DNA of 64,000 nt from an uncultured delta proteobacterium (GCA_963745035.1 CAVUVW010000010.1:1-64000), one strand, 5' to 3'; positions 14,398 through 51,790 are shown, counted from the stretch's first letter. Numbers and translations: made by a program. Notes: generated by a model not told the origin, from the letters alone.

Positions 14398-14859
14398 ATT
14401 GGAGACTGAACTGATGGGGCCAAACCTTTGTTGATAATCTGCTCTTGACAGAGCCTTCATTCACTTCTTCTCGTCGGCGAGCCGTTTTTTGAAGTTCCAA
14501 CGGAAGTTGGGGTTGCGCATGAGTTGTTGACTGTCTAGTCCTTGACCTATTTTGTTAGGCCTCTTATCGTGGCTTCTGCCGTGAAGAGATTGCCGGCGCT
14601 GTCGATGGCGATGCCTTCTCCGGCGGCTCCGGGAATAATGAATATGGATAATTCGATCGTCGGGCGGAATGAGGATTTTTGGCGGCACCGGCGGCTGCAA
14701 AAAATACCTTCTCTCAGAGGACAACGGGTTTGTTGACGAGGCTTTCGGTAACGAAAGGGAAATTGTCCGCGAGCCAAGCATCGGGATAATGGATAATTGA
14801 TAATGGACAATCAAAACGTTTCGTTGCCGGGTAGGATGACGGATTCGATCAAAGGGCGT

Positions 14860-15288
14860 GGGGACGCTGTTGACTAACTGGACAAATGGCATAAGGGATC
14901 GGAATCCGCGGAGAAGATATGCCGAGACATGCGAGGCTCGATAGTCCAGGGACGCTGCACCACGTGATGGTAAGAGGCATTGAACAACGGCAGATTGTCG
15001 ATGATGAGGCAGACCGCGCGGATTTTGTGCGACGACTTGGAGCCTTGGCTGCCGAAACCGGGACACTGGTAAGGAAAGGCGGGACGCTGTTTCCTTGAAG
15101 GACAAACCATCACTAGAATGGGAATTTGGTCTTGCATTAAGGGGGGCTGGGCCGACTGGCGTAATAAAAATCGAGATCCGCCGAGTACTGATAGGTGGAC
15201 TAGAGGTCGTCTGCGGAAAAGACCCGAGCGGGCGGTAGCACCTCGAAAGTCGCCCGAGTAGTTTGTCCATCTAGTCAACAACGTCCCC
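14860..15288 (+). mobile_element. Internally deleted RAYT-type element with terminal inverted repeats
   Basis: ggggacgctgttgactaactggacaaa / tttgtccatctagtcaacaacgtcccc; encodes MPRHARLDSPGTLHHVMVRGIEQRQI from about 14918. Confidence 0.8.
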
Positions 15289-15410
15289 GAGTCCATAGTT
15301 GCGAATAGTTGCGTAAGACATGAGCGCGTGAGCGCGCCGGCGTCGACCCAAATTCCTTCTTCGGCAAAAAGGGGCATGCGATTTTTGATGGCGAGATCAA
15401 CGATCTAAAG

Positions 15411-16397
15411 TCACTTGATGAGGCGCTGGAACTCGGCGTCGTCAAAGAGCGAGGCAAAGGACTTGTTGCGCTTTAACTGGCCCTTCTGCGCGGGGTTGGA
15501 GGCGATGGCGCGCTCGATCGCTTTCAGTGCCGCCGCCTTGTTGCCCTGGCGCAGGCTGATGTCGGCCATTGCCACCAGTGCCAGATCGTCCTCGGGCGAG
15601 GCCTTGAGTGCGCTCTCGGCGAGTGCCATGGCGCCTGTGAGATCGTTCTTCTCGATCAGCGGGCCGATCCGGCCAATCATCTCGAAGCCACGCGTGACAC
15701 CCAGGATGCGGCGCAGCTCGACGAGCGGCTGCTTGTGGTCGTCGACACGGATGTCGAGCAGCGTGTCGTCGTAGTCGGCGCGAACCAGTGGCTTGACGAT
15801 CTTGAGCATCGCGCCCTGCATGCCGCGGCGGTCGCCGCCTGCAGCCTGGCCGGCATCGAGGGCAGCCAACAGGCGCTCTGCCAAGGGACCCTTCGCGGCC
15901 TCGAAGGCCTTGCCCATCTCCTCGATCACGTTGCCATTGGCCAGCGTGTTGCCCTGCACGCAGTAGATCGGCGTGCACTTGTGGCCGGTCCAGTCGGGGA
16001 TCGTCTTGCTCGACCACGCGGCGCTGCGGCCCTGGATGTCAATGACGGCGACCTGGCGGCGGTCGGGCTCCTTGTCGGCACGCAGCGCGAACTCGAGCGC
16101 CTGCTGCGGCGTCATCCCGCGCTCGATGCCGTCGATGACGAGCTTGCCGTACATCGGGTTGGAGGACGACTGATGCGCGACAATAGCAACGCCGCCTTTG
16201 CCAGTGACAACGCGGTTGCCGATCGACAGGGCCTTGGACTGCACACCGAGGCCGAGCAGGCCCGTGTCCTTCTCCACGGCGATGATTGAGAATGTGCTGT
16301 CCGCGGGCGCGTACTGCCGGGTGGGCGTCTCTTCGGCAGTGGCAGCCGTCAGCGCCAATCCAGATGCTGCAATTGCTGCCATCGCTGTCCTTCGCAT
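15411..16397 (-). CDS. DUF1028 Ntn-hydrolase with C-terminal TPR
   Basis: TFSIIAV, RRQVAVID, QGNTL, GGDRRG, DIRVDDH. Confidence 0.88.
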   Translation of the reverse strand: MRRTAMAAIAASGLALTAATAEETPTRQYAPADSTFSIIAVEKDTGLLGLGVQSKALSIGNRVVTGKGGVAIVAHQSSSNPMYGKLVIDGIERGMTPQQALEFALRADKEPDRRQVAVIDIQGRSAAWSSKTIPDWTGHKCTPIYCVQGNTLANGNVIEEMGKAFEAAKGPLAERLLAALDAGQAAGGDRRGMQGAMLKIVKPLVRADYDDTLLDIRVDDHKQPLVELRRILGVTRGFEMIGRIGPLIEKNDLTGAMALAESALKASPEDDLALVAMADISLRQGNKAAALKAIERAIASNPAQKGQLKRNKSFASLFDDAEFQRLIK

Positions 16398-16664
16398 CGG
16401 TTGCCCCCTCGCCATATTTACAGTGAGAATAAACCGCCTTTTTCTATGACCAAACTCATATCGCAGGACTGGTAGAGCGGTCAATTTCTTTCTGCTTGAT
16501 GAAAAACCACGAATGGAAAGCGATGGGAAGGGTCATTTACGGCAGCAGGAAAACTGCATTCTTCGAGGAGAAAAAGGCAAATTTTGCGGCACGATTGAAC
16601 TGTACGACGCATCACTTCGATGCTGCCGCAAATTGGATTGAAGGAGAATTCAGTTCAATCTTAC

Positions 16665-16763
16665 GGCTAACGACTCAAGCTGAGCCACGCCGGACTAGTG
16701 ATGTCAACCGCGAAAGCGGAACTGAAAGCGCTATCCGGCGTTGGCTCCAGCGCATTGTTCGGC
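16665..16763 (-). other. attC site
   Basis: Minus strand GCCGAAC...GAGCCAACGCCGGA...TCCGGCGTGGCTC...GTTAGCC imperfect palindrome. Confidence 0.85.
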
Positions 16764-16800
16764 TGTTCCGCGGGAACTAGAGATAGAGGTACCATCGACC

Positions 16801-17142
16801 TTAAGAAGCGGGATCGAACCCGAACACTCGTAGCTCTTGGTGGCAGCGGCAGGCCTTCGCGATGCGCGCGGCCCACGCGATAGCCTCTTCGCGAGAGGGT
16901 AGTTCGAGCACCGTGAAGCCGCCATTGAGCGGAGGCGCCCACGAGTATCCGCCTGCGGAGAACGTGCCATCGGCCGAGACGAGCACCGGCGGGACCGCTT
17001 CGTCGATACCGCCGCCGAAGACATATACGCCGGCGGCTTTTGCTTCGTCGATTACCGCGTGTGCGTCGCGACCAACCGCCTCCCATTCGCCATCGGGTAC
17101 GACCATCGCTGCGCTTGGAAATGAGATTAGGTATTTCGCCAT
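16801..17142 (-). CDS. YciI family protein (integron cassette)
   Basis: MAKYLISF, GGFTVLELPSREEAIAWA; lies between two attC sites. Confidence 0.88.
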   Translation of the reverse strand: MAKYLISFPSAAMVVPDGEWEAVGRDAHAVIDEAKAAGVYVFGGGIDEAVPPVLVSADGTFSAGGYSWAPPLNGGFTVLELPSREEAIAWAARIAKACRCHQELRVFGFDPAS

Positions 17143-17189
17143 AGAACTCTTTCTTTAGGAATGGAAGACAGTCGTGCGCGAAGTTCTTT

Positions 17190-17249
17190 GCCGAACGCCA
17201 GCGTCAGCCGCGCCCGCCGGCAGGCGTCGGCTGCACGCAATGGTTGGGC
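17190..17249 (-). other. attC site
   Basis: Minus strand GCCCAAC...CAGCCGACGCCTGCCGGCGGGCGCGGCTG...GTTCGGC. Confidence 0.88.
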
Positions 17250-17282
17250 CATTGGTCAACCAGCGTATCCCGTTCCACCCGT

Positions 17283-18410
17283 TCACGGTGTCTTCCCATG
17301 CACGACTCGATCGATCCGGGGCCAGACCTCGTTTGCCATGAGCTCCATGGAGCGCCGGGCGAGCGCTGGATCGGCCCAGTCGTGGCCTGTGTAGAGCAGC
17401 GTGCCGAATGCGCCGACCTCGGTGCGGAACGCGAGAATCTGGTCCGCGACGCTCTGCGGTGTTCCCGCGATCACGAGACGCTCGAGGCACCGCTGCGTCG
17501 AGAGCTCGGAGTCCAGCTGGCCGGGAAAGTCACGCATCACGTCCAGCGCGCCGGCCTTGGCGAGCTTGGTCTTCATCACGTGGAAGTAGAAGCCGTGCGC
17601 GCCGTCCTCGCGATGGGCATAGCGACGGGCCGTGGTCTCGTCATCGGCAACGAAGACGCTGCGCGCCACGCGCCAACCGGAAGGATCGGCGGAGAGGCCC
17701 GCCGAGCGCCGGCCTTCCAAATAGCTCCGGATTTGGGCCCGGACCACGTAGGCACCCACGTAGGTCGCCGAGATCCCGCTCCAGCCGCGAGTTCCCGCCG
17801 CATGCGGCCCCCGGGCATCCGGCCGGATCGAGGTGATGGCGATGGGAGGATGCGGCTTTTGCAGCGGGCGGACGGCGACGCCCACCCCGATGCTCGGATC
17901 GAGCGAGCGCTCCGTCGTGGTCCGGTAGAACTCGCCTTCGATCCGGTAGGGCGGCGCTTCGCTCCAAATCCGGCACATGTGGTCGAGGGCCTCCTGGGTC
18001 TTGCGGTTGCGGTCCGAGCCCAGGTCTCCGATGGCCTCCGCGTCGCCGGGAACGCCGGGTCCCACGCCCAGGATGAGGCGACCCTGCACCAGGTGGTCGA
18101 CCATCGCGACCTGCGCCGCCGTCATCGCCGGGTGGTAGTTGGCGAGCGGAAGCACGCCGGTACCGAAGGTGATCGATGGGCAGGCATCGGCCAGGTTTGC
18201 GATGAAAGCAAGGCTCGAGGTAATGGTCTCGGCTGAGTCCACGAGATGTTCGCCGATGAAGGCCTCGCGATAGCCGAGTCGATCGGCGAGCACGACCGCT
18301 TCACGGTCCTCGCGCAGCACGTCCCCATAGGGGCGGAACAGCGGGTGGACGGGCTGGATGAAGAATCCGAGCTTCAGAGGGCTTTGCATTGAGTCTTCAG
18401 AGTCGCTCAT
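17283..18410 (-). CDS. LLM-class flavin-dependent oxidoreductase (integron cassette)
   Basis: LGYREAFIGEH, GRLILGVGPG, SMELMANEVWP. Confidence 0.92.
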   Translation of the reverse strand: MSDSEDSMQSPLKLGFFIQPVHPLFRPYGDVLREDREAVVLADRLGYREAFIGEHLVDSAETITSSLAFIANLADACPSITFGTGVLPLANYHPAMTAAQVAMVDHLVQGRLILGVGPGVPGDAEAIGDLGSDRNRKTQEALDHMCRIWSEAPPYRIEGEFYRTTTERSLDPSIGVGVAVRPLQKPHPPIAITSIRPDARGPHAAGTRGWSGISATYVGAYVVRAQIRSYLEGRRSAGLSADPSGWRVARSVFVADDETTARRYAHREDGAHGFYFHVMKTKLAKAGALDVMRDFPGQLDSELSTQRCLERLVIAGTPQSVADQILAFRTEVGAFGTLLYTGHDWADPALARRSMELMANEVWPRIDRVVHGKTP

Positions 18411-18854
18411 TCGTTTCGTGCCGCCTAACTATTAAGTGAGCCGCCGTACGTAGCGACAATTGTTGGTCGGCTTATCTCGGCGACAGCTCGGACAATAAAA
18501 GCTCAAATTGCGTGCAATATCCATCAGCTCACCTGGCTTGTCAACGTAGAGTTTTTCGCTAAAAGCCGACCGGCGCGGCGGCTTATCTCCCTAACGATCG
18601 GCGGCCTATTTCGGCAAGACCATCGCAAAGGCGGCAGGATTGAATTGAACGACGCATCGAGCAAATCGCGTCTGTGTAGAGTCACTTGATTGCAAATCAA
18701 GTCGCTCGGACCTTCAGCGACCAAAGAATCCGCAATCGAAGCCAGCGTGCTTGAAAGTAATCCGACTTTGAGCCTTCGCCGAAAGGGATGGAGTGACACA
18801 GATCGAGGTGCTAACGTGACGCCAGCACAAGTCTAGAAGCCCACGGAGGCGTAC

Positions 18855-19358
18855 ATGTCCTTCCTTACTGACGAACAGAAAGACCTTGCGAACGAGATCG
18901 CCGCCCTACTCACCGAGCGAGGCGAGACGGTCTGCGTGGCGGAGTCTACCACTGGAGGCCTCGTGTCCGCGGCACTACTGTGGGTGGCCGGCGCGTCCAA
19001 GTACTACGCCGGTGGCAGCGTGCTCTACACGCTTGGCTCGCGCACGGCGCTGGCGGGTGTGCCGGCATCGATGTTTGAGAACTACCGCGGCACCACGCCG
19101 GAGATGATCGCCGCCATCGCCGACGCCATGCGCCAGCGCCTGGGCGCCACCTGGTGCATCGCCGAATCCGGCCTCGCCGGTCCCACGCGAGGCCGATCCG
19201 GCCTGCCACCCGGCCGCACGACGATCTGCGTCTGCGGCCCTGTAACGCGTGTCAACGTGCAGCAGACCGGCCTGCCGGACCGAGAGCCCAACATGATCGC
19301 CTTTACGACTCTGACGCTACGCTATCTGCGGGACGCGATTAAAGAGGCGGAGCATTAG
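18855..19358 (+). CDS. CinA C-terminal/PncC-like NMN deamidase
   Basis: VAESTTGGLVS, ESGLAGP. Confidence 0.88.
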   Translation: MSFLTDEQKDLANEIAALLTERGETVCVAESTTGGLVSAALLWVAGASKYYAGGSVLYTLGSRTALAGVPASMFENYRGTTPEMIAAIADAMRQRLGATWCIAESGLAGPTRGRSGLPPGRTTICVCGPVTRVNVQQTGLPDREPNMIAFTTLTLRYLRDAIKEAEH

Positions 19359-19435
19359 GAGTTCGCCCCGCAGAAGCTACGGTGTTGGGCAGCCAAATTT
19401 GGCGAAATCCGAAATCAGTGTCGCTAAGAAAAAAT

Positions 19436-19600
19436 TTACCGTCGGCAGATCCACATCGGCACTTCCTGGTTCCTTTGGCGTTTCCACTCATAGAAGCCAT
19501 CTGCCGGAATCAGACAACGCTGCGTTGAAACGAGCCGCTTGTACGATGGTCTTTCCCGCAGTGTCTCTGCACGGGCATTTATCAGCCGTTGCCAGATGGC
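19436..19600 (-). pseudogene. SOS response-associated peptidase (SRAP) internal fragment
   Basis: LINARAETL...RCLIPADGFYEWK. Confidence 0.8.
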
Positions 19601-20011
19601 CTTATCGACGAGGGCCGTGGGGTCAAATCTGGAGTTAGGGGGAACTAGGCAGGGGGAACTAGCAGTGTCTGACTTGCCTAACTCTACTAACTCCAACCAA
19701 TCCTTGATTATCGCGAAGCACTTTGGGGATCAGGTCTTTTCCTCTTGCTATTGATTGCCTGGGCACCTTCTCGGTGTCAGACCGGGAGGAACGGTGCCGA
19801 CAACACTGAACAATGGCGAGCGCCACCTCGATCATCGACTCAGTCTGACGCCGGCGTAGCTGGCCGGGCGCGCTGTTCAGTCGACTACCGAGCGATCGGG
19901 GACGAGCGAGCGTTGGAGCCACTGGAACATCCGCCACCCGACGGAGTCAGCGGCGAGTGTCACGCCGCAGTCGACAGAAATCTTGAACTGCTCCAAGAAA
20001 AGAGAACGTCT

Positions 20012-20428
20012 ATGAAAGTGTTGGCCGTCGTATATCCTGGTATGACCCTCTTGGACATGGTCGGTCCCATACAGGCGTGGAGTCTCTTACCAGGCTACGA
20101 AGTTCAGTACGCCTGGCGCCGTTCCGGTGCGGTGCGCACGGACTGCGGTCTCAGCGTGCAAGCGACCCATGATTTCGAGGATGCTTGGACCGATCCAGAC
20201 GTGCTCTTTGTCGGCGGCGGTGCGAAGCCCAGATTGGATCTGTTGGGCGATTCCGCCGCAATCGCCTTTTTTGGCGGATCGCGGATCCCGCGCCCGCTGG
20301 GTGTGCAGTGGAATACGCGCCACAGCCGCCGTACGGCGCGCGCCGCCCTGAACTGGCCGACCCGCAGAGTCTGGCAGCCGCGCGCGGCGCTCCAGCAGGC
20401 GATGACCGGCATCTCCGCGCCGAGTTGA
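20012..20428 (+). pseudogene. DJ-1/PfpI paralog with internal deletion
   Basis: Diverged copy of 45499-46158; jumps from WVCS to EYAP near 20308. Confidence 0.85.
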
Positions 20429-20965
20429 TAAAGCAGACTACGGCATGAGTATTGGCTTATTCATGTGAGTCGAGGTTTCGACCCATAGTCAGGATCTGAA
20501 TCCGGCGCCGTCCGGCGCCGAGCAAAGGGGAGCGACGCAGTTCCATAACTTCGTTACCGCAAATTAACTTGAACTTGTATTGACACCACGCCTGCATTGG
20601 AATAGTCAGGCATCAGAACTTGCCATCTCCGATCACACTTCTCTCAGGCGAACGATTTTTCCCGGAGCGCACTATCGTTTGATCGTGCTACACGAAGCTC
20701 GCTAACGAAAGGAGCAGTCCATGACTTACGCCCGAAAGCGTCAGAGCAGGCTGATCCTGCAAACGTTTTAGGAGAGTTCGTCTGTCATCGGGACAAACGG
20801 GCCAAGAAAAGGCGAGGTCGAATTCGCGTGCGCGCTGCCGAGCGTTCCATGCGAGCTCAGGGACGATCAGATTCGCACGGTGCACGGCCCGCTGGGCCAA
20901 GTCATTTCCTCGCCGCGGCGGCAGTGTTTCGATTTTGCGCCGGCGCGCGAGCAAAGGAGGAACCC

Positions 20966-21859
20966 ATGAGCATCAGGCTATTTGCAGACAAGAATTGCAA
21001 AGGCGATTCCCGCCTCGTGGTGAGCGACTTGCGTGACCTGAAGGGCCTGACGGCTGATAAGCCGTCCTCGCTGGTCATCGATGATGAAGACAAGGCAGTC
21101 CTTCTATTCAAAAACGACGATTGGCATGGCGGCGCACTTTATATCCGCGGCCCCGCCACGGTAAACGACCTGGGTTCAGGAAAGGACGGAGGACGCACCG
21201 GCTTCGGCGACTCGATACGTTCCGTGCGCGTCACGCCTTTTCAGGTTGATCTTAACGTCACGGTCGTGACCGACAGTAAGGGGAATTTGCCTGGCGACTG
21301 GAAGACACAACCCGAGGCCAAGGACGATATCCGCAAGATGGTTGATGACGCGAATGCCTTTTTGGACGATAAACGCGCGCTGCTGCAGCTCGGCATCGCG
21401 CGCATCACCTTCCGTAATTCGGATCACCTATTCGCGATCTCCAAGCTCGAGCAGATCGTCCTGCCAGGCGAATGGACCGAAAAAGGTGAAGTCGACGTCG
21501 TATTCACCCACCGGTTTACTAAGGAAGGGACGATCGGGCGCGCGTTCTACCCCTGCTGGGGCGAAAGCGTTGTCGTGGCCAAGCGGCTGAACAGCGTTGT
21601 CGGCGCCGATAGTAGCCTTACGCTAGACGACATGGCCGCGACAATGATGCACGAGATCGGTCACCATTTCGGCCTGGGTCACGGCACAGCTAACACGGAT
21701 AAAAATCTGATGTTCGCCTCACTCGAGCAGGACAGCCTGTCGAAGATGTGGCTGTTGGCGGATCAAATACGCGAGGTGCACGACCGACTCGCTAACAACA
21801 TCAGCCGCAGAGCTGAGCGCAAGGATCCCCGGCCCGACATCTTCAACCCCACGCCTTGA
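20966..21859 (+). CDS. Beta/gamma-crystallin-like N-terminus plus metzincin protease
   Basis: LFADKNCKG / LFKNDDWHG / SIRSVR; HEIGHHFGLGH with a downstream Met-turn. Confidence 0.7.
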   Translation: MSIRLFADKNCKGDSRLVVSDLRDLKGLTADKPSSLVIDDEDKAVLLFKNDDWHGGALYIRGPATVNDLGSGKDGGRTGFGDSIRSVRVTPFQVDLNVTVVTDSKGNLPGDWKTQPEAKDDIRKMVDDANAFLDDKRALLQLGIARITFRNSDHLFAISKLEQIVLPGEWTEKGEVDVVFTHRFTKEGTIGRAFYPCWGESVVVAKRLNSVVGADSSLTLDDMAATMMHEIGHHFGLGHGTANTDKNLMFASLEQDSLSKMWLLADQIREVHDRLANNISRRAERKDPRPDIFNPTP

Positions 21860-22215
21860 TGCGCAACACAGGATTGCGTAATTGTCTCGACACTCGCTAC
21901 GAAGAGAGTCTTCGAGCGGGCGGACCCTGGTGATTCCTTTGGCTCGCAGCAGCAGCGCCACACGGGCGCTGGTCGCTTCGTTGGGTCACGAACAGTAGAG
22001 AACGAGTCGCGATCCCGGGGAATCTCTCCGTGGCGCTCTTCGATCTCTTCCATCGACGCAGCGGTTGCCTGATGGCAACCCTACATCTTGGCGAGCAAGC
22101 CACTCCCGTGGCTGGCGATCACGGCGTCGAAGTTGTCGACCGCCGTGTTCACGTCCATGGTCCGCACGCGATAGACGTCACCATGGGATGCGAGTGAGAC
22201 CCTTGTTCCCAAGTC

Positions 22216-26412: not shown

Positions 26413-26801
26413 GGAAGGAGAAAGAAGGGTCAAATCTTGACTTCAGTACTTGGTGAGATTAGCGTAGAGATATTTTATGGCGCGACCGCTGCGAATATCC
26501 TATCCCAACGCTTTTTATCATGTGACCTGCCGCGGCAACGACCGGCGGGTAATCTTCCGCGACGATCATGACCGCACTCGCTTTCTAGCCCAACTCGAAA
26601 GCGCGCTCGAGATCTTCAGTGTGCGCCTGCATGCCTTTGTGCTGATGAGTAACCATTTCCACCTCATTGTCGAGACGCCCAAAGCCAATCTGTCGGAGTT
26701 CATGAGGCAATTCAATATTTCGTATACCGGCTACTATAACCGACGGCACGGCCGCATCGGACATTTATACCAGGGACGATTCAAAGCATCGTGGTGGACA
26801 A
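26413..26801 (+). pseudogene. Tandem partial duplicate of the RAYT left end and 5' gene
   Basis: Nearly identical to about 26802-27190; junction at AAGGA microhomology. Confidence 0.88.
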
Positions 26802-26815
26802 GGAAGGAGAAGGAA

Positions 26816-27857
26816 GGGGTCAAATCTTGACTTCAGTACTTGGTGAGATTAGCGTAGAGGTATTTTATGGCGCGACCGCTGCGAATATCCTATCCCAACG
26901 CTTTTTATCATGTGACCTGCCGCGGCAACGACCGGCGGGTAATCTTCCGCGACGATCATGACCGCACTCGCTTTCTAGCCCAACTCGAAAGCGCGCTCGA
27001 GATCTTCAGCGTGCGCCTGCATGCCTTTGTGCTGATGAGTAACCATTTCCACCTCATTGTCGAGACGCCCAAAGCCAATCTGTCGGAGTTCATGAGGCAA
27101 TTCAATATTTCGTATACCGGCTACTATAACCGACGGCACGGCCGCATCGGACATTTATACCAGGGACGATTCAAAGCCATCGTGGTGGACAAGGACAGTT
27201 ACCTATTGGAGTTGAGCCGCTATGTGCATTTGAATCCGATCCGCATCAAAGCGAAAAGACAGCGGTCGGAGGCCGAACGCATCGGAGAAGTCAGCCGATA
27301 CCGCTGGAGCAGCCTTTCTGGATACCTCGACGGAAAAAAGAAGGCTTTGTGGATGACCTACGACGCAGTGCTCGGTTACGTGGGCGGATCGCGCCAGAAA
27401 TATGCGGCATTTGTGCAGGAGGGGATACGCGAAGGTTTCGCCACTCCATGGGAAGGTCTCCTGGCGCAGATGGTCTTAGGAAACCCGGATTTTGTGGAAA
27501 AGCTGAAAAAAATGAAGATCAAGGGCAGCCCTAAAGATCAGCCGCCGTATCGAATGATTCGAAGCATCAAGGCTGAAGCGCTCATCAAACAAGCGGCACG
27601 TTATTTCGGACTTGCCGAGGCGGACCTGACGAGGAAACGGGGCCGGCATCGGCTGGAACGAGCGCTGGTGATGGAGCTACTGCATCGATACAGCGGGCTT
27701 AAGCAGCGGATGATCGGTGAACGGTTAGGAAATCTGGATGAGGGCCTGGTGAGCCGGGACTGCAGAGCAATCCGGGCAAAGATCAAGAACGATCCGAAGA
27801 TCCGAAAGTGGTTCGAGGAGATCGTAGCAGTAAGTACCTAAGTCAAGATTTGACCCC
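26816..27857 (+). mobile_element. RAYT-type element with 26-bp terminal inverted repeats
   Basis: ggggtcaaatcttgacttcagtactt / aagtacctaagtcaagatttgacccc (24/26). Confidence 0.85.
26867..27841 (+). CDS. REP-associated tyrosine (Y1 HUH) transposase with C-terminal HTH
   Basis: YHVTCRGN, MSNHFHL (HUH), QGRFK, RYVHLNP. Confidence 0.92.
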   Translation: MARPLRISYPNAFYHVTCRGNDRRVIFRDDHDRTRFLAQLESALEIFSVRLHAFVLMSNHFHLIVETPKANLSEFMRQFNISYTGYYNRRHGRIGHLYQGRFKAIVVDKDSYLLELSRYVHLNPIRIKAKRQRSEAERIGEVSRYRWSSLSGYLDGKKKALWMTYDAVLGYVGGSRQKYAAFVQEGIREGFATPWEGLLAQMVLGNPDFVEKLKKMKIKGSPKDQPPYRMIRSIKAEALIKQAARYFGLAEADLTRKRGRHRLERALVMELLHRYSGLKQRMIGERLGNLDEGLVSRDCRAIRAKIKNDPKIRKWFEEIVAVST

Positions 27858-30816: not shown

Positions 30817-31215
30817 TCTCAGCGGTTCAGCGCGCCCAGACCCAGTGGTGTCAGACTTCCTGGTTTTCCGCGATCAACATCTCGGGTCAGATTGTGCGGT
30901 CAGGTCTTGTATTTTGACATTGCGGATTTTTTGCGGCACCGGCGGCTGCGAAAAATACTTCTCTCAAAGGACAATGGGTTTCTTGACGAGGCTTTCGGTA
31001 ACGAAAGGGAAATTGTCCGCGAGCCAAGCGTCGGGAATAATGATAAGGATAATTGATAATGGATAATTCGATCGTCGGATACAAATAATGGAAAATGGAT
31101 TCGTATTAGGGTGGTTACCTGACGGCAACCTTACATCTTGGCGAGCCAGCCACTCCCGTGGCTGGCGATCACCGGCGTCGAAGTTGTCGACCGCCGTGTT
31201 CCACTAACCGTCTCA

Positions 31216-34558: not shown

Positions 34559-35507
34559 AAAAATTCATAATGGATAATGGAAAATTGATAATGGACACCT
34601 TCGACCAAATCTAGTGGGGCGGCAGCGGGCCCGTGCCGGCGATTTTTTTGAAAAGATCCACGTCTTGCGGATCGCGAGGAAGCTTCTTTAGGACTTCATC
34701 GAATTCATCCGGCGTGAGCGGGGAAGGCGCGTTTGGGTGGTTACCTGCGGCAACCCTACATCTTGGCGAGCAAGCCACTCCCGTGGCTGGCGATCACAGC
34801 ATCGAAGTTGTCGACCGCCGTGTTCACGTCCATGGCCCGGCGCGCTGTTCAGTCGACCACCGATCGATCGGGAAGAGCGACCGCTGGAGCCACTGGAACA
34901 TCCGCCATCCGACGGGGTCGAGGGCGAGCGTCGACGCTGCAAGCGCAGCGGCCTCGTCCGAGATCGGTCGCCCGTTCGGCGCTATCACGTGGACCTCAGC
35001 CACCCGTTCGGCCATCACGAACCATCCGACCGATTCCTCCACCGACCGGCCGACCGTGACCAGGCCGTGGTTGCGCAGGATGCAGAACTCCTTGTTGCCG
35101 AGCGCGCGCCGAAGATTGAGGGCTGGTCCAGTGTTAATCCTACCGCTTACCGATGTGGTAAGGTCCTGAATTCGCTTCCGGTATCTTCGGTTAATTCTCG
35201 ATCTTTTCCCTGATCGCCCTGCCATCGGGCCAACTCCTCGGCCAAACCGCCAAATGGCTCGCCGATCACCCGGCTCCTGCATTCCCCGAGCCGTCAAAAG
35301 CAACACCGGGATTTTCCTCGATCAGAAAGGCAATTGACAACTCTCCGGTCCGGCGTTACTGCTCGGGCAGAACAAAAAGCTGGTTTGAATTTCTTATGCA
35401 TACGCGAGATCATGCAGCGTGGCCAATTCACGCGGGTGATCGTCCCGCCCGCCGAGGCGCCGGCGCCCCTATCGGCATAAAATAAAAAATAGAAAGTTGG
35501 ATTTCAG

Positions 35508-37063: not shown

Positions 37064-37340
37064 GGGTCAGACTTTTACGTCTGGACGATCTTGCTCAGCC
37101 GGTCTCCCGTCCTGTCGTATCATCGGCTTGCAACCGATCGCTCGGCGGTGCGAGCGCGCAGGCCAGGAGGGTCTGGCCTGAGTATTGAGTTATGGTCGTC
37201 ACTACCAACTTCAGGATCGGACCTGTGCAAATTCTCGAATTGAAAATTTAGGCGTGTTCACTTCCATGCGCGCACGCGATAAATGCCGCCGCGGGACGCG
37301 GGGAAGGGCTCAATGCCCTGCTGGAAATCGGGCGCGCTGT

Positions 37341-38129
37341 TCAGTCGACCACCGAGCGATCGGGGACGAGCGACCGCTGGATCCACTGGAACATCCGCCA
37401 TCCGACGGAGTCATGGGCGAGTGTCGACGCCGCAGCCGCAGCAGCCTCGTCGGAGATCGGTCGTGCGTTCGGCGCTTTCACGTGGACCTCGGCCACCCGC
37501 TCGGCCATCACGAACCATCCGACCGATTCCTCCACCGACCGGCCGACCGTGAGCAGGCCGTGGTTGCGCAGGATGCAGAACTTCCTGTTGCCGAGTGCGG
37601 CGGCGATGCGCTTGCCGCCATCGATCGAAAGCACCTCCACCTCCTCATCGTCGAAGAGGGCCTGGTCGAACACGAAGGCGCACGCCTCCTGACTGAGCGC
37701 GCGAAACGGCTCGACGTTGGCCGACCATGGCGTGCCGAAGGCGGTGTGGGTGTGAGATGCGCTCACGACATCGGGACGGGCAGCGAGCAGCGGATGGTGA
37801 ATATAGTAACCGGCCGTGTTGACGGCACCGGTCGCGTTGCCGTCGGCATCTTTCACTTCGCCACCGGGCCCGACCAGCACCAACTGGTGGACCGTCGCCT
37901 CGGCGAATGGGACACCCCAGTCGAGCAGCCAGAAGTGGTCGGTCAACTCGGGGTCACGGGCGGATACGTGGCCGTCGCCGAGCATCCCCCACCGCATCGC
38001 GCCGAAGATGCGGTATCCAAGCGCACACATCCGTTTGCGATGCGCCCGTTCGTCGGCAACCGAACGGACGGTGCCGTAGGGCTCGACCCCGTCGAACGGT
38101 GGATAGGGACTCGATGTCATGTCGTCCAT
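37341..38129 (-). CDS. Class II aldolase/adducin family protein
   Basis: GHVSARDP, HTHT, ILRNHGLLTVG. Confidence 0.93.
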   Translation of the reverse strand: MDDMTSSPYPPFDGVEPYGTVRSVADERAHRKRMCALGYRIFGAMRWGMLGDGHVSARDPELTDHFWLLDWGVPFAEATVHQLVLVGPGGEVKDADGNATGAVNTAGYYIHHPLLAARPDVVSASHTHTAFGTPWSANVEPFRALSQEACAFVFDQALFDDEEVEVLSIDGGKRIAAALGNRKFCILRNHGLLTVGRSVEESVGWFVMAERVAEVHVKAPNARPISDEAAAAAASTLAHDSVGWRMFQWIQRSLVPDRSVVD

Positions 38130-38157: not shown

Positions 38158-38976
38158 CAGGCTGTTGAAAAAGGCCCACCTGCTTCGTCAATGCGCTCGA
38201 TCATCTCATCGGGATCGGAGTACTGGAGTGACGAGAGTGGTGGAGTGATGGGTTTAAGACGCAATACTCCAGTACTCCATTACTCCAACAGTGTAGCAAT
38301 CCTTTTGTGGGTCATAGATAAAGTCCTCTTTAGTAAACAGTCCGCGCTTAAGGTTCGATGAATTATTGGGCTTAGGCACGTAAACCGTCATCCCGGACTG
38401 CTCGCAGGCTTTTACTTCTTCCCCGTTGTAGTAACCTCGGTCGGCCACTACCTGTAGAGTCTGTACGCCGAGCGTCTCTTGGGCCTTCTTTGCCATGGGT
38501 GGACAGTTGCCGTTAGCCGGTAACTTCGTTGGTGACCTCGTGCTCCACCACCAGCTTGTGCTTGTGATCCACCACGATCTGCACGTTGTAGCTGACCTCC
38601 ACCCCGTGCCCTACACGCATCGAGCGGCTCTGCGGATCTGTCAATGATATTTGACTCTCTACACTGCCTTCCAGATCGGTCTTCAGCTGCTCATACTGCG
38701 CTAGGCGCTGCTTGTATTGTTCGATCTTGTCCTGGAGTTGTTCTGGACTCACACCCCGTTGCCCGGCTACCTGCTGATCCTCTTGGTCCAATTCCTTAAG
38801 ATACTGATCGATCTTACCGTCGATCTCTTCTATCATCCGCCTAAGCTTTTTTTCTGTGAAGTTGCGCTTGGGACTATTCACGGCTCCAAATTTGCTGCCG
38901 TCCTCCATTTTGTTCGCGCGCCTCGCATCTAGACTTTTTTGAACAGCCTGGAATCAGGGTTCTTCAACAGACTGTT
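38158..38976. mobile_element. MITE halves enclosing IS1182-like transposase fragments
   Basis: caggctgttgaaaaaggcccacctgcttcgt ... gcctcgcatctagactttttgaacagcctg...ttcaacagactg. Confidence 0.7.
38290..38905 (-). pseudogene. IS1182-family transposase fragment
   Basis: DGSKF, SLTDPQSRSM, YNVQIVVD, VADRGYY. Confidence 0.85.
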
Positions 38977-43456: not shown

Positions 43457-43634
43457 TAAAGTTCTCCCGCGCTGAATTGAGCCCGTTATATTCAGCCTGC
43501 GGCGAACCTGTCAACGAAATTCTCTGAAGCGGCAAGCGTTGTGAATGACATCGCGAGCGGCGCCCGCGTTCGTGGATTGCGCTTGGGGAATCCACTTTGC
43601 CGCGAGCGGTCCGAGTGGTTGCCTGACGGCAACC

Positions 43635-44903
43635 CTACGCCTTGGCGACCAAGCTGTTCCCGTGACTCGCGATCATCGCGTCGAAGTTGTCGACCGCCGT
43701 GTTCACGTCCATGGCGCGCACGCGATAGATGTCACCGTGGGATGCGGGGAAGGGCTCGATGCCCTGCTGGAGCTCACGGGCCAGATTCAGCAATCGCTTG
43801 CGCGCCGTGATGATCGCGAGGTCGCTGGTGCCGAGGTGCTCCTTGCGGCGGTCGTAGATGGGCCCCATGCTTTCCTGAATCGCGCGATCCTGATCGTTGA
43901 CGCCCCAGATGCCGGTGTAGGTCGTAGTGCGCTGGATCTCGCGATCGAGCAGGTAGTCGTTCTCCATGTTGCGCTTCGGGATGAACGTGCCGGGGATCAA
44001 CTCAGGCGGAAACGCGCGACCCGTGCGGCGTATTGCGAGGTCTTCGTCGATCAGCGGCCGATCCGGGTGGTAGGAAATATAAAAGGTCATGGTGCGATTG
44101 TCGTCGACCGGAATCCAGGCTCGTCCGCCGGCCGGGAAGCGCATGAACGGAATCAGGCTATAGGTCGGGAGCAGCGCCTGGGTCACCCGCCAGTTGTAGG
44201 TTCCTTCGCCTACTATGCGACGGGCGCCGTAGCGGAAGCCGTAGTCGGTGTCGTTCACGACGATCTTGGGTGCCCCGTCCCGCGCTTTCAGCCTGGGATC
44301 GATGGTGGTGCCCTCACTCGGGGAAGCCGCCGGGTTCAGGTAGGTGTGCAGGAACGAGGCGTGGGAGCTGTCGATGTCGCCCTCGTACCCCTGGAGATAG
44401 TTGGTTTCCTGGTACCACTTCGACACCGAGCGGTGGCTATCGGGGACTTGGGTCCACTCCAATTGAGGCAGCTCTGCGCGGAGATGTTGGGGCCCCATGT
44501 AAACCCAAATCAGGCCGCCGTGGACGGCCGTCGGGTAAGCCGTGATGTGAATCTTGTCTTTGAAGTTGCTTTCGGCGGGTTCGGACGGCATGTCGACGCA
44601 GTTGCCGTCGACATCAAATTTCCAGCCATGATAGACACAGCGAATGCCGCACTCCTCGTTGCGCCCGAAGTAGAGGGACGCGCCGCGGTGCGGGCAGTGA
44701 GCCTCGACGACCCCGATTTTGTTATTTGAGTCGCGAAAGGCGACCAGATCCTCACCGAGCAGGCGCAGGCGCACGGGCGGGCAATCCGCTTTGGGCAACT
44801 CGTCGGCCAGCATCGCCGGCAGCCAGAATCGCCGAAATAGCTCGCCCATGGGCGTTCCCGGCCCGACACGGCACGCGAATTCGTTGTCTTCTTTGCTTAA
44901 CAC
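43635..44903 (-). CDS. Rieske oxygenase (phthalate 4,5-dioxygenase-like)
   Basis: CPHRGASL, CVYHGWKF, DSSHASFLH, QDRAIQES. Confidence 0.94.
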   Translation of the reverse strand: MLSKEDNEFACRVGPGTPMGELFRRFWLPAMLADELPKADCPPVRLRLLGEDLVAFRDSNNKIGVVEAHCPHRGASLYFGRNEECGIRCVYHGWKFDVDGNCVDMPSEPAESNFKDKIHITAYPTAVHGGLIWVYMGPQHLRAELPQLEWTQVPDSHRSVSKWYQETNYLQGYEGDIDSSHASFLHTYLNPAASPSEGTTIDPRLKARDGAPKIVVNDTDYGFRYGARRIVGEGTYNWRVTQALLPTYSLIPFMRFPAGGRAWIPVDDNRTMTFYISYHPDRPLIDEDLAIRRTGRAFPPELIPGTFIPKRNMENDYLLDREIQRTTTYTGIWGVNDQDRAIQESMGPIYDRRKEHLGTSDLAIITARKRLLNLARELQQGIEPFPASHGDIYRVRAMDVNTAVDNFDAMIASHGNSLVAKA

Positions 44904-46158: not shown

Positions 46159-46341
46159 TGCCGCGCGCTCCTTTGAGTCAACAAAATCGTTCTGTGCCGC
46201 GAGGTCGGTTCCGGGGTCGGGCCTGAGTTATTGACTTATTGCTCATCGCTGATGCGATCTCGCGGCGTCACGCTGTGCGTGAAAAGATCCCGCCCCCTTT
46301 TCCCAACTACAATTGAATCTAGCGAGCGTGTTTCGACAAAT

Positions 46342-47424
46342 CTAGTGGGGCGGGAGCGGGCCCGTGCCCGCGATTTTTTTGAAAAGATCCACATCTTGCG
46401 GATCGCGGGGAAGCTTCTTTAGGACTTCATCGAATTCATCCGGCGTGAGCGGGGAAGGGGCGTCGCCGGTGAGCTTCTTATAATCGTTGGAAAACTCAGG
46501 GTCCTTATAGGCTGCGGTGATGGCATCGCGCAGCGTCCGAACCCGCTCCGGCGGGGTGCGCGGCGGAGTGATGAAGGTCGCGCCGGCGATACTGAAGGAC
46601 CGATAGATCTCCAGCAGCCGCCGTTCCCTGTCCGTCCTGGCAAAAGATTCGAGCTCGGGCAGATGAGCGAAGCGCGGATGCGTGCTGGCTTTGGGGATCT
46701 GCAAGATCGCGTGAAAGTCGACGAGTTTCTTTTCGATCCATTCGGGATTGCGCCGCAGCAACGAAGGGGCGACGTTCACTCTGGCGTCGAGTTCGCCGCG
46801 CAAGAGCGCCTGATCCATCTCGGGTCCCGAGTATCCGGTGACGAATTTAGGCTCGTTCAGGCGCAGAATATACGCGAACAATCGGGCGAGCGTATGGATC
46901 ACATGGCCCACCGATTGCGCGCCGATTCGTATTCCCGGGCTGGCGCGGAGACGATCCAATGTGCCTAGATTGGACTCCCGTCTGGTGAGAAACACATAGT
47001 GGTCCTCGGATTCGGCGGTACCGAAGAAACTAAATTTGTCGAGCTCGTAATCCACTCCAGGTTCATTGAGGGCTGCGGCCCGGACGAAGCCGCCCGGCGG
47101 ATAGCCGAGCGTCAGGCCGTCGGGACGAGCGGTTCGAAAGATGTAGTTCGCGGCCTTTCGGCCGCCGCCGCCAGGCATGTATTCCGTCACGATATTCGGC
47201 TGTCCAGGAATATGCTTTTTCAAATACGGCAATATCGACTTCAGCCGCAAATCTCCCAACCCTCCCGGCTCCTGGCCAGCGATCACGGTGATGGTCTTGC
47301 CTTGATAAAAGAGCGCCTGCGGTAAGACCGGGTGCGGCTGGCATAAGAGGAAGAACGCCGATGCGCACATGACTGCGCCATTACTAACTTTGCGATATTT
47401 TCCAAAGAGCATCAGAACTCTCAA
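46342..47424 (-). CDS. TctC/Bug tripartite tricarboxylate transporter receptor
   Basis: FYQGKTITVI, MPGGGG, ARPDGLTL; start uncertain. Confidence 0.88.
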   Translation of the reverse strand: MRVLMLFGKYRKVSNGAVMCASAFFLLCQPHPVLPQALFYQGKTITVIAGQEPGGLGDLRLKSILPYLKKHIPGQPNIVTEYMPGGGGRKAANYIFRTARPDGLTLGYPPGGFVRAAALNEPGVDYELDKFSFFGTAESEDHYVFLTRRESNLGTLDRLRASPGIRIGAQSVGHVIHTLARLFAYILRLNEPKFVTGYSGPEMDQALLRGELDARVNVAPSLLRRNPEWIEKKLVDFHAILQIPKASTHPRFAHLPELESFARTDRERRLLEIYRSFSIAGATFITPPRTPPERVRTLRDAITAAYKDPEFSNDYKKLTGDAPSPLTPDEFDEVLKKLPRDPQDVDLFKKIAGTGPLPPH

Positions 47425-49283: not shown

Positions 49284-49450
49284 TTAAGTCGACACCCACC
49301 ACGTGTTACCTCCCGGATCGATAGCTCGCTTGGCGCTCGTCGTACGGTATGTCTTCTGGCGGGACATGGTCGTGGCTCCAAGTCGAATGGCTCGGCCGTA
49401 CACCGCATCTACGTCGTCAACGTAGACGTGGATCGACCCGACCGAGGGTG
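49284..49450 (-). pseudogene. VOC/glyoxalase 3' fragment
   Basis: HVYVDDVDAVYGRA...DPGGNTWWVST*. Confidence 0.7.
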
Positions 49451-49949
49451 AAACATGAAATGATGGGAATTTGCTTTTCTCTCGACGCGAGTAATTGAAC
49501 CCCGGCTCCATCAGCCGCTTGCGAGCCAGCTGTCAACAGCTCGACAGCGAGTCGGACCAAAAGAGCAGCCTCCATTCGTACGATTTGGGCGTACCGTATC
49601 CGATAAAGGTGGTCTCATACAACTATAAACGGCTTGAGTGGGCAGGAAACAACCTTTGCTCAATCATCGTAGCTGATCCAAGGATATGTCGCTGCGAAAA
49701 ATACCTTCTCTCAGAGGACAACGGGTTTCTTGACGAGGCTTTCGGTGACGAAAGGGAAATTGTACGCGAGCCAGGCGTCGATCCCGCCTTCGAGCGGGCG
49801 GACCCTGGTGATTTCTTTGGCTCGCAGCAGCAGCGCCACACGGGCGCTGGTCGCTTCGTTGGGTCACTTCTGCAGTTTAGGGTCAGGTCGGCTTGCAACC
49901 AGTGCCGGCATGAAAAACGGAGCGATGAGTTGCCCCGGGTTTGACGGAT

Positions 49950-50267
49950 CTACGAACCTGACTTTAGGTTTCTTTTCCGGACTTGCGAAGGGAGTTTGGC
50001 TCGGCGGCGCCGGGCGACTGTTTTCCAGAATTCTCCGTGGGATACGCCTTTGCCTGCTTTGATGCTTCTTCGTGACTTGCTGAGCAAAGACTGGAAACGG
50101 CGCGAGTGGGCCAGCATCAGTCGTTCCAAATCGTCATTATCCTTAGGCGCCAGCAATACCGCCGCGGCCTTGCCGTTGCGCGTGATAATGACCGGGCCCT
50201 CGTTCTCGCATTCGTCCACATAGGCACTGAGATGGGCTTTCACGTCCGCCAGCGCTGCGATCTTCAT
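49950..50267 (-). CDS. Phd/YefM antitoxin
   Basis: VKAHLSAYV, GPVIITRNGK. Confidence 0.9.
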   Translation of the reverse strand: MKIAALADVKAHLSAYVDECENEGPVIITRNGKAAAVLLAPKDNDDLERLMLAHSRRFQSLLSKSRRSIKAGKGVSHGEFWKTVARRRRAKLPSQVRKRNLKSGS

Positions 50268-50587
50268 AATTGGAACTCCTCTCCTCCGATAAACAGCCGG
50301 TTGCCTTCTTTCACGCCGATCGCCAGGACAGCGACCGTTTTTTCCTCATGATTCACGTCATAAAAGACACGAAATGAGTTTTTCGGCCCAAAACGCACTT
50401 CCCAGGTCGCGCCGAACGAGGCGGGCTCCTCAAGCGGTTTGCGGTTTCTGGTCTCCTTTGCGGGTGTGTGAGAAAGCTGCTCCTTGATCGTTGTCGCAAC
50501 CAAACGGTGATATTTAAGCTCAATCCAATCGAGATGCTTGTATGTCTCCGGCGCGTAGATGATCGTAAATACGGCTTGCCGCGCCAT
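50264..50587 (-). CDS. RelE/ParE toxin (upstream of its antitoxin)
   Basis: WEVRFG...FRVFYDV...AIGVK; ATGA overlap. Confidence 0.88.
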   Translation of the reverse strand: MARQAVFTIIYAPETYKHLDWIELKYHRLVATTIKEQLSHTPAKETRNRKPLEEPASFGATWEVRFGPKNSFRVFYDVNHEEKTVAVLAIGVKEGNRLFIGGEEFQL

Positions 50588-50833
50588 TGACCAAAATTAT
50601 AGTCATCAGCGAGCGGAAATCAAATACTTGGGGAAGAAGAAATGGTAACGCGAACCGTTTGGTGTTCTAACCATTCTTAGGTCTGCCGCGGGCTGAAGTG
50701 TGGTTCCAATTCGAGCGCAGCCGCGATGAAATAATGGAGAATTGATAATGGATAATGGACAATTCAAGAACGTTACCTCTCCCTGCGATTGCTCTTACGA
50801 TGCCTGTCGGTTAACAATGACGACGACTCTCTC

Positions 50834-51790
50834 TCAAAGGACAACGGGTTTCTTGACGAGGCTTTCGGTGACGAAAGGGAAATTGTCCGCGAGCCAGGCG
50901 TCGATGCCGCCTTCGAGCGGGCGAACCCTGGTGATGCCTTTGGCTCGCAGCAACAGCGCCACCCGGGCGCTGGTCGCTTCGTTGGGTCACGAACAGTAGA
51001 GGACGACGTCGCGATCCCGCGGAATCTCGCCGTGGCGCTCTTCGATCTCTTCCATAGCCATACGAAGCGCACCCGGGATCATCTGAGGAAACGCCTCGAT
51101 ATCCATGGGCTGGCGCAAGTCCACGATGGAGATGTTTTCTCGGGCGGTGAGTTTGTCCATGAGTTCTTTCGCAGTGATGCGCGCAATCCGCAGCCGGCGA
51201 AGAAAGCGTTGCCGCTGGATGAATTTCCACAAAACATAAGCCGCCAAACTTCCGGCCAGGACTGCGACCAGCCAACCGCCCCAGCGCAGCGCGATCCGCT
51301 CGAGTTGATCGCTGAGAATCAAGCCCAAGCTCGTAACGGTGACGACCCAGAGGAATCCGCCCAGAGAATCGAAGATCAGGAAACGTTCTAGGGGCATGCG
51401 AAAGACTCCCGCCAGAGACGGTGCTGCGGTATTCAGGCCGGGTATAAATTTGGCAACGAGCAAAGAACGGACGCCATGCCGGATGAAAAGGTTCTCAGTC
51501 CGCCGCACGCAGGAGTCAGGTTCGAGAGAAATGCGGCACAGTAGCTTCAGTATACGGCCGCCGCGGTAACGGCCTAGAAAGTACCAGAACAGGTCGGCCA
51601 AAATAACCGCGATAAACGCCAAGGTCACCGCGAACGTTAAGTTCATTTTGCCGGCACGGGCCAGCGCGCCGGCCGCGATCAACAGAGGAGCAGCCGGGAT
51701 AGGCAGACCCAGCTGTTCGAGCAGCACCCACCCGAACAGCACAACGTAGCCATGCCTGATCAGGAAGTCGGCCGCTTGTTCCAGGCTCAA
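50834..51790 (-). CDS. DedA/VTT plus rhodanese protein with in-frame TGA (probable selenocysteine) at 50987-50989
   Basis: EQLGLPIPA, KFIPG; VLYCS-TGA-PNEATSARVALLLRAKGITRVRPLEGGIDAW continues the rhodanese domain for 50 codons. Confidence 0.88.

Follow-up and report, generated by a model that had tools for sequence, protein, structure and literature searches.

Here we describe an island of accessory genes in the genome of an uncultured delta proteobacterium of soil in which the spacers between genes hold stacks of 5'-truncated copies of gene 3' ends (hereafter, tails). The stretch of DNA analyzed (GCA_963745035.1, CAVUVW010000010.1:1-64000; hereafter, the window) covers the initial 64 kb of contig C10, which is 204 kb long and belongs to a metagenome bin (G000; 7.43 Mb in 28 contigs, 92.6% complete, with an estimated contamination of 5.8%). 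Between 14.6 and 51 kb of the window, the stacks in the spacers consist of copies, 73-276 bp long and 85-99% identical, of the 3' parts of genes encoding a DedA-rhodanese protein, a TctC-like binding protein, a Rieske oxygenase and a class II aldolase. We favor, with considerable reserve, the reading that 3' ends were displaced serially, in nested fashion, within a hypervariable island of accessory genes and that the stacks are the scars of this process. According to Pfam, the island also contains split genes, two toxin-antitoxin pairs and an IS200-like Y1 gene.

The fragments were mapped by BLAST searches of the window against itself and against the whole 28-contig assembly, the window genes were named from Pfam profile scans, and the comparison set consisted of 31 genomes of the genus, including G000. 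The tail matches have E-values from 1e-18 to 1e-104. In all four families, every tail is in direct orientation and, with respect to the direction of the gene, downstream of its full-length copy; at E<=1e-6, the remainder of the 28-contig assembly contains no further copy from any of these families. An earlier note, made from the sequence alone, had listed the DedA, Rieske, aldolase and TctC fragments, which were recovered within a few bases in both searches. Its description of the pieces as gene tails holds for most of them, the exceptions being 21910-22053 and 37253-37325, which are internal (77-221 and 63-136 nt from the stop codon, respectively). It had also placed the start of the tails 10-45 nt past a stop codon. 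This is the case in comparison with the resident full-length copies only, but not in relatives with natural downstream DNA: tails of the same types continue into such DNA in G037, G038 and G015 (DedA) and in G018 (aldolase), so that the apparent start just past the stop is a mere switch in the context of the resident copy.

The four full-length genes are all located on the minus strand. The DedA/VTT-rhodanese gene (50834..51823; VTT_dom, 2.1e-19, with the rhodanese match cut at a TGA codon) anchors the island. The others are the TctC-like gene (46342..47424, a weak Pfam TctC match), the gene for a Rieske/LigXa-like oxygenase (43635..44903, assigned by Pfam, a divergent allele with a hairpin of 7-bp stem directly after the stop codon) and the class II aldolase gene (37341..38129; Aldolase_II, 9.4e-33). 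Along the minus strand, the order is DedA, a heptamer motif, a ParE/Phd pair, a DedA tail, a UPF0261 gene, full-length TctC, DJ-1, full-length Rieske, five genes, full-length aldolase, a Rieske fragment, a NYN gene (plus strand), the aldolase, Rieske and TctC tails and, again, the heptamer motif. The TctC, Rieske and aldolase genes with their tails thus form a nest, TctC[Rieske[aldolase[..]tail]tail]tail, or T[R[A[..]a]r]t, in which the TctC gene is the outermost opener and the aldolase gene the innermost. The closing tails, all on the minus strand, lie in the stack at 34562-35112: aldolase tail a1 (34839..35112, with 266 coding nt), Rieske tail r2 (34737..34836) and TctC-like tail t1 (34600..34732). 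Such a nest is the outcome to be expected if new DNA lands between a gene and its own old end and the next event uses the gene that arrived last. The tails at 31102-31201, 30921-31033, 22060-22192, 21910-22053 and 14670-14783 fit three successive DedA events. Serial accretion, as suggested in the earlier note, is therefore supported by the nested full-length genes and tails and by the recurrence of composite pieces.

For DedA, both an empty site and donor-type contexts are observed in relatives. The resident full-length gene is 92% identical to the gene of G015 over 1448 bp, and the tails at 14670-14783, 21910-22053, 30921-31033 and 49691-49867 are 93-99% identical to 50826-51055. Tail d1 (49691..49867, minus strand) consists of the last 157 coding nt and 20 nt beyond the gene, followed by downstream DNA of the G037 type; it is 95% identical to 50830-50990 and 97.2% identical to the G015 gene. 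G037 has a continuous DedA end, and d1 runs on for at least 450 bp into the DNA behind it (93% identity over 461 bp); therefore, d1 is not a complementary DNA (cDNA) begun at the 3' end of an mRNA. The resident full-length gene has a different 3' untranslated region (UTR) followed by the heptamer motif, (GATAATG/GAGAATT)n, at 50731..50764 (plus strand). This is natural downstream DNA of the resident allele: the same arrangement follows DedA in G006, but not in G037. Two DedA copies with two natural downstream contexts are as expected if a donor locus displaces the resident end. The DedA repeats around the insert are 161 bp long and correspond to a single continuous copy in G037 and in G038. 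Between DedA and d1, the cargo is the ParE/Phd toxin-antitoxin pair (49950..50587, minus strand; Phd, 6e-15; ParE, 9.8e-4). G012 has this pair (87%) at a different location, where it is bordered 10 nt past the stop and 40 nt ahead of the start. In the comparison of G000 with G015, no recombination breakpoint inside DedA was visible in 100-nt windows.

Tail d2 (30921..31067, minus strand) comprises 70 coding nt and the natural UTR, with a heptamer motif joined at 31033. The same UTR type is found behind the uninterrupted DedA gene of G038 and on the 549-bp DedA tail of G015, located 1.9 kb downstream of the full-length gene in that genome. An older DedA tail is represented by an upstream half (Z; 21910..22053, minus strand, 97.9% identical to G015) and a downstream half with the UTR (Y; 14670..14783, minus strand). 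The two are joined in G038, where the uninterrupted DedA end spans 14670-14783 and 21910-22053 along with 7 nt absent from the window, and has the same UTR type; therefore, the two halves are one in-situ tail split by an insert. This 7.1-kb insert (14784..21909) has a heptamer motif at its start and ends 50 nt after the stop of a metallopeptidase gene; it contains an aldolase tail (19865-19977) and a further piece (20012-20425) that is not a tail but an inverted, nearly full-length, degenerate DJ-1/PfpI paralogue. The junction between DedA tail and heptamer motif is identical at 14783/14784 and 31033/31037, which indicates that composite pieces were propagated.

The heptamer motif occurs at 18 sites in the assembly, and its four sites in the window (14784-14811, 31037-31067, 34562-34597 and 50731-50764) are all on the plus strand. 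The motif at 34562..34597 forms the base of a stack, 3 nt past the stop of an M20 peptidase gene. Copies are also numerous in relatives (15 matches in G036). At G000:C21:352712-353244, two inverted copies flank a small gene that may encode a four-helix-bundle (23S rRNA intervening sequence) protein.

The DedA-rhodanese frame itself contains an in-frame TGA codon (50987-50989, minus strand) in the rhodanese part, between VVLYCS and PNEAT. The TGA is conserved in the tails (at about 49864 and 21985, respectively) as well as in three relatives (G015, G037 and G038), and a stem-loop lies about 10 nt downstream of it, with a fold z-score of only -1.0. G000 encodes tRNA-Sec (76.7 bits) and SelA (523 bits). 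The gene may, judging from these features, encode a selenoprotein rather than being a pseudogene.

The Rieske gene is found in 7 of the 31 genomes. Its pieces at 22060-22192, 31102-31201, 34737-34836 and 37253-37325 are 86-89% identical to 43614-43771. Besides r2, there are two terminal tails on the minus strand, r3 (31102..31201, 14 nt from the stop of a cupin gene) and r4 (22060..22192, 23 nt from the stop of a MoCoBD gene), whereas the fragment at 37253..37325 (minus strand), directly downstream of the aldolase gene, is internal and corresponds to 43698-43771 (89%). At the 67 coding positions that they share, the three terminal tails differ from each other by 1-3 bases and from the full-length genes of G003, G004, G014 and G015 by 3-6, compared with 10-11 from the resident gene; therefore, the resident intact gene is not their source. 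The natural 3' UTR of the Rieske gene (in G003, G004, G015 and the resident gene) is longer than that in any tail. The tails end 2, 6 and 11 nt beyond the post-stop hairpin, with the 3' boundary overall ranging from 2 to more than 66 nt, and the inner breakpoints differ as well (43704, 43715, 43746 and 43771). On contig C4 of G004, four co-oriented Rieske tails and one full-length gene occur within 25 kb.

The aldolase tails (19865-19977 and 34839-35112) are 91% identical to 37329-37606; a1 is 93.6% identical to the G018 allele, compared with 91.3% to the resident gene (37331-37606). The TctC-like tail t1 is 95.5% identical to 46332-46463 and 96% identical to a sequence on contig C14 of G038. 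Among the one-off tails proposed in the earlier note, the one at 14461 was borne out: the segment 14443..14492 (minus strand) corresponds to the 3' end of a gene whose full-length version (a 215-aa open reading frame, ORF) is present in G018. The segment 14534-14630 matches three relatives at 79-82% identity and is a candidate tail only, and the pieces at 45234 and 49284 likewise remain candidates of the earlier note only. ORFs 14461-15270 and 34633-35169 cross stacks of unrelated tails and are probably spurious annotations. Another gene-cargo-tail arrangement, on the plus strand and outside the range covered by the earlier note, involves an NMT1-like binding-protein gene (653-1669): a 5'-truncated copy at 7845..8613 (plus strand) lies 6 kb downstream of the full-length gene (1027-1795 vs 7845-8613, 769 bp, 97.4%) and matches the Pfam profile at positions 120-241 only.

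The differences between tails and full-length copies are distributed over codon positions 1, 2 and 3 as 27, 17 and 56 (chi-square p 5e-6). From the excess at third positions it follows that much of the divergence arose in functional genes. The bias would fit divergence of functional alleles plus some later decay, a pattern that cannot separate the models considered here.

From these observations, we infer the recombination route, the entry of DNA into the cell and the order of events as follows. DNA from a related genome would pair homologously within a gene common to donor and recipient. The incoming DNA would carry the 3' end of that gene together with the downstream content of the donor (the cargo), while an illegitimate joint, requiring hardly any microhomology, would connect its far end to a point within the final 70-270 nt of the resident copy. 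The gene would remain whole, and its old end, now a co-oriented tail truncated at its 5' side, would come to lie beyond the cargo. The same result would be obtained by single-crossover (Campbell-type) integration of an excised circle containing the 3' fragment of the gene and the cargo. If the next event is anchored in the last cargo gene, the tails would stack in the reverse order of the full-length genes, and cargo that brings older stacks along may explain the recurring composites. Alleles and flanks support an exogenous incoming end for DedA (the G006-type vs G037-type flanks) and for Rieske.

The layout recurs throughout the genome. A local-repeat census, in which a whole-assembly self-BLAST was sorted against a crude ORF map, showed that, outside five tandem arrays of paralogous binding-protein genes (delimited after the data had been seen), local direct copies lying outside ORFs exist for the 3' ends of 22 ORFs, compared with the 5' ends of 9 (binomial p 0.03). 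Most of the non-array pairs (19 of 24) lie downstream of the gene (p 0.007); the median tail retains 106.5 coding nt and remains similar to the full-length copy up to 15.5 nt (median) past the stop. The arrangement of gene, cargo and own tail was seen at about 20 other loci of the genome and in relatives as well. On contig C19, a gene for a pyridoxal phosphate (PLP)-dependent enzyme of Cys/Met metabolism is followed by a Phd + PIN toxin-antitoxin pair and a 162-bp tail (94.4%). For the 162-bp repeats of this gene, one match each is listed in G005, G032 and G042 (matches only). Fragments of the PLP gene are present downstream of it in G039 (three) and G018 (two), and upstream of it in G038 (one); in G015, a PLP tail is linked to the same Phd + PIN pair. 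G000 and G039 differ in the point of the PLP gene to which the end of this pair is attached, and there are eight different inner breakpoints in the gene, scattered over 200 nt. Other cargo is ordinary, including a ChaN-like protein, a 3-keto-disaccharide hydrolase, GFA, a permease and a sensor kinase. Pieces of 15109-16613 are found in G039 at 99.9-100% identity, but the locus is rearranged in other respects, and no clean empty site was found there. In G015, the NYN and Rieske genes are loosely syntenic, which is suggestive only.

The genome also contains long tandem arrays of co-oriented genes of about 1 kb (G000:C17:177-207 kb, C14:388-412 kb, C11:203-223 kb and C2:0-25 kb), the 3' ends of which cross-match at 80-85%. 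These arrays are the source of most local direct repeats in the assembly. The array genes are putative TctC-type binding-protein paralogues.

Several observations weigh against one-sided displacement by incoming DNA. The tail on C19 differs from its own full-length copy at 8 of 161 positions, compared with 18-23 for relatives, and the PLP tail of G038 is likewise a sister of its own full-length copy (5 differences in 138 positions). For the C19 gene, therefore, tail and full copy being sisters, an exogenous incoming end is not supported; for the sister tails of C19 and G038, duplication in situ or a same-population donor is an equally good or better fit. The three Rieske tails, nearly identical but with different cuts at either side, would need several copies of one allele or repeated events with similar donors, and the Rieske tail at 31102-31201, being outside the TctC bracket, must have come with cargo. 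The state before the nest, in which a full-length TctC gene would lie beside the heptamer motif and the M20 gene, was not found in the 30 relatives (the M20 gene itself has no match in these genomes). Of the cargo-side junctions, eight were picked by eye, and all of them are close to a gene end, either 12-82 nt past a stop or 34 nt ahead of a start; the chance of such proximity, estimated from a crude, greedy map of ORFs with a minimum length of 120 aa, is between 4e-10 and 2e-6. One-sided homologous recombination alone does not explain these tight cargo ends. A plausible cause, assumed here, would be selection for intact neighbors in a compact genome, and Furuta et al. suggest likewise. ComEC and DprA are encoded in G000, but also in 10-11 of 14 control genomes, and so say little about transformation.

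A possible, though considerably less probable, explanation is that the tails were copied in situ within the lineage and subsequently decayed, either by an insertion accompanied by a long target duplication or by replication template switching near gene 3' ends, of the type of fork stalling and template switching or microhomology-mediated break-induced replication (FoSTeS/MMBIR). Most of the island genes are on the minus strand. Several of the observations discussed above agree with in-situ copying, namely, the derived bases that the C19 and G038 tails share with the full-length copies of their own genomes and the near identity of the three Rieske tails with different ends on both sides. The stack at 34562-35112 resembles a chain of short templated pieces, all from within 16 kb, and G004 has local direct repeats of 98.9-100% identity, including a 269-bp tail of a plus-strand gene. 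There are also documented inserts with direct repeats of 46-423 bp across stop codons (PMC2853133). In G000, by contrast, the genome census shows no tail more than 96% identical to its full-length copy. Moreover, the natural downstream DNA differs between the two DedA copies, and both versions occur behind DedA in other genomes; the old DedA tail, with downstream DNA of its own, is a remnant left in situ, and the Rieske tails are much closer to the alleles of other genomes than to the resident gene.

It is doubtful that the stacks result from a dedicated, integrase-free accretion of cassettes, in which whole genes would be added behind a stop codon, with the last 70-270 nt of the gene as the landing pad. 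Such a route could use transcript-shaped DNA made by the group-II-like reverse transcriptases of the genus or a nuclease that cuts at gene ends. The tight ends of the cargo, the independent junctions of the toxin-antitoxin pair with the PLP gene in G000 and G039 and the occurrence at about 20 loci are all compatible with it.

Still more doubtful is site-specific accretion, in which integrase-driven elements, or integrase-less ones mobilized in trans, would target gene 3' ends, with a copy of the gene end carried in attP. Gene 3' ends are the classical targets of such elements, exemplified by the integrative and conjugative elements (ICE) and cis-mobilizable elements (CIME) that integrate at the 3' end of fda in streptococci, and the succession of intact gene, cargo and 3' fragment is that of an attL/attR layout. 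About 16 Phage_integrase matches over the cut-off were detected on other contigs. However, none of the 20 Phage_integrase matches listed is on contig C10 and none was found in the scanned cargo; the Pfam scans of the window gave no tyrosine recombinase or IntI, and there is none on C10 among the matches listed. The junctions, compared by eye, show 0-3 nt of microhomology and no common motif or core sequence, and the inner breakpoints vary within one gene (four positions in Rieske, eight in PLP), which argues against a site-specific enzyme. The GGGTCAGG-type border motif was rejected, with 2 matches in the window vs 0.66 expected (15 of 100 shuffles reached 2) and no enrichment in the genome. 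Hairpins as a general mark of cargo ends were rejected as well, being clear only behind the Rieske and MoCoBD genes. No recurrent attC-like repeat was seen by eye at unit borders; the attC model was not run.

There is slightly less still to be said for capture by HUH rolling-circle replication, one of the two engines proposed in the earlier note, or for chimeric assembly of the metagenome bin. The only HUH gene in the window encodes a Y1_Tnp domain with a DnaA_C domain (26867-27841; IS200-like, fused to a DnaA C-terminal helix-turn-helix). It is within the island, but is enclosed by 25-nt inverted repeats of its own, keeps a distance of at least 3 kb from all stacks and adjoins no junction; searches of G000 for Y2_Tnp and Helitron_like_N were empty, and no control genome matched either profile. 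Such an engine is not supported here. The Y1 element (26413-27857) contains a 390-bp tandem duplication of the 5' part of its gene (98.7%), and the assembly contains two or three more Y1_Tnp loci. The possibility that the 25-nt inverted repeat is a dispersed repetitive extragenic palindrome was dismissed, with four sites in the genome at up to 4 mismatches, three of them at the element itself.

An assembly chimera could be suspected from the contamination estimate of the bin and from alternative arrangements of the same genes that coexist, as loose contig ends, in four soil/winery runs. However, copies that differ by 1-15% cannot have been created by mis-joins at shared words, and the same kind of layout is seen in independently assembled relatives, some in 10-20 contigs. 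Read support was judged from per-run contigs, the statements on junctions resting on the 32 pieces listed out of 1266. Words of 30800-37400 occur, at shares of 0.22-0.56, in 19 of 24 runs among those listed (8 studies), and one independent contig among the pieces listed, from run X5 (34159-34630), bridges the end of the M20 gene, the heptamer motif and the first 31 nt of the TctC tail. Contig joints from 31033 to 21910/21928 were discarded as intact DedA genes of other strains aligned to both halves.

The least probable explanation is the other engine of the earlier note, a reverse transcriptase that copies 3'-terminal RNA fragments and jumps between templates, followed by integration of the concatenated cDNA: the 3'-proximal position of the fragments, outer ends just past stops or post-stop hairpins, the scarce microhomology, the cargo borders as tight as those of a transcript-shaped unit and RVT_1 genes in 11 of the 31 genomes would agree with it, but G000 (92.6% complete, as noted) has only a broken RVT_1 remnant with stops, the tail-bearing G003 and G038 lack an RVT_1 match over the cut-off (the assemblies are 88-99% complete, so that absence is unproven), DedA tail DNA extends at least 450 bp into natural downstream DNA contiguous with that of G037, the Rieske tails are not copies of the resident gene, inner ends within one gene spread over 200 nt, and one cargo includes the NYN gene on the opposite strand.

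The window has several other features. A low-GC stretch (12000-15000, 46-50% vs about 59% around it) carries an AIPR (abortive-infection-type) gene (12282-13775). The M20 peptidase gene is split (33190-34044 / 34055-34558), with one base at 34010 missing in 3 of 4 runs, and so is the NYN gene (35508-35828 / 35792-37063), with an extra C after 35773 in all 4 runs (metagenome contigs in both cases); the frameshifts, which lie near these variants, may reflect either differences among strains or errors of the consensus. A multi-copy element some 250-300 bp long (18420-18666 and 16528-16663; 76-87% identity, at least 10 places in the assembly, no Rfam match) sits upstream of minus-strand genes, and these two copies bracket a 2-kb segment with a luciferase-like monooxygenase gene that is absent in G039 at an otherwise 99.9% identical locus. 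A 1.45-kb repeat (57659-59112) with a 447-aa ORF lacking a Pfam match has four other copies at 99.4-99.7% identity and is probably an insertion sequence. Short dispersed repeats (38157-38290, 38903-38976, 57504-57561 and 59114-59184) adjoin this 1.45-kb repeat and the PIN toxin-antitoxin pair in the window and recur on other contigs. Rfam at gathering thresholds gave no match in the window, ARAGORN found neither tRNA nor tmRNA there, and a promoter/terminator scan of the window showed no excess of terminators (4 found vs 7.3 expected).

The claim of the earlier note that no bacterial system with this layout has been described was too strong, given the similarity to rhs, mafB and type VI secretion system (T6SS) loci and to restriction-modification inserts. 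At rhs, mafB, contact-dependent inhibition (CDI) and T6SS loci, co-oriented 3' fragments that vary in length, and at times form strings, have been described downstream of a full-length gene; the explanation given is that incoming DNA recombines with the conserved portion of the gene and shunts the old end downstream (PMC2935791; PMC5361080). For T6SS effector-immunity arrays, a crossover in a shared gene combined with an illegitimate joint has been proposed (Kirchberger 2017, PMC5361080), and for rhs, integration of an episomal circle containing a core fragment (Jackson 2009, PMC2935791), which gives the same product as one-sided displacement. The island resembles these C-terminal displacement arrays in that co-oriented, 5'-truncated pieces of a gene lie downstream of its intact copy, and in that arrays may travel with cargo. 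In contrast to them, the genes here are ordinary transport and metabolic genes in which Pfam detects no toxin tip, immunity partner or toxin domain, the old and new ends are homologous (85-99%) rather than unrelated tips, and the tails of four genes are interleaved and nested, with whole accessory genes as cargo.

The second relevant system is insertion with long target duplication, described for restriction-modification inserts of less than 20 kb without a mobility gene (Furuta 2010, PMC2853133; Nobusato 2000). According to the former article, such inserts have on either side a direct repeat that measures tens to hundreds of bp and often extends across the stop codon, so that the target gene stays intact, a relative has a one-copy empty site, and the mechanism is unknown (PMC2853133). 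Here, too, the repeats exceed 30 bp, with a single copy at the DedA empty site (G037 and G038), and the inserts are shorter than 20 kb and lack mobility genes (only ParE/Phd in the DedA cargo and only Phd + PIN on C19). Unlike in a plain target duplication, the upstream DedA repeat has a donor-type flank; the cargo consists of toxin-antitoxin pairs and metabolic genes, and the events form a nested series.

Tandem accretion at the 3' ends of protein-coding or tRNA genes is also typical of ICE/CIME and tycheposon-like islands, in which, as here, repeated co-oriented 3' fragments mark the borders of successive inserts; the island differs from these in having no integrase on the contig among the matches listed, no fixed crossover and no core. 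With integron arrays, it shares the serial addition of tight, gene-sized units in one orientation, with older material moved away, whereas its scars are pieces of genes and, again among the matches listed, the contig encodes no integrase.

A limited full-text literature search did not yield nested multi-gene stacks of ordinary genes. The integrase- and transposase-free addition of single genes to flexible regions is poorly understood, and this genome and its relatives contain dozens of events of different ages, up to three brackets deep, some with relatives of the empty-site or donor type, a material that could be used to test one-sided homologous recombination against circle integration and template switching. 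The pattern is best read as a dense, nested case of a known type of scar, 3'-end displacement or insertion with long direct repeats, in which the density, the nesting and the ordinary cargo are unusual; orphan strings of gene 3' ends are, thus, not peculiar to polymorphic toxin loci.

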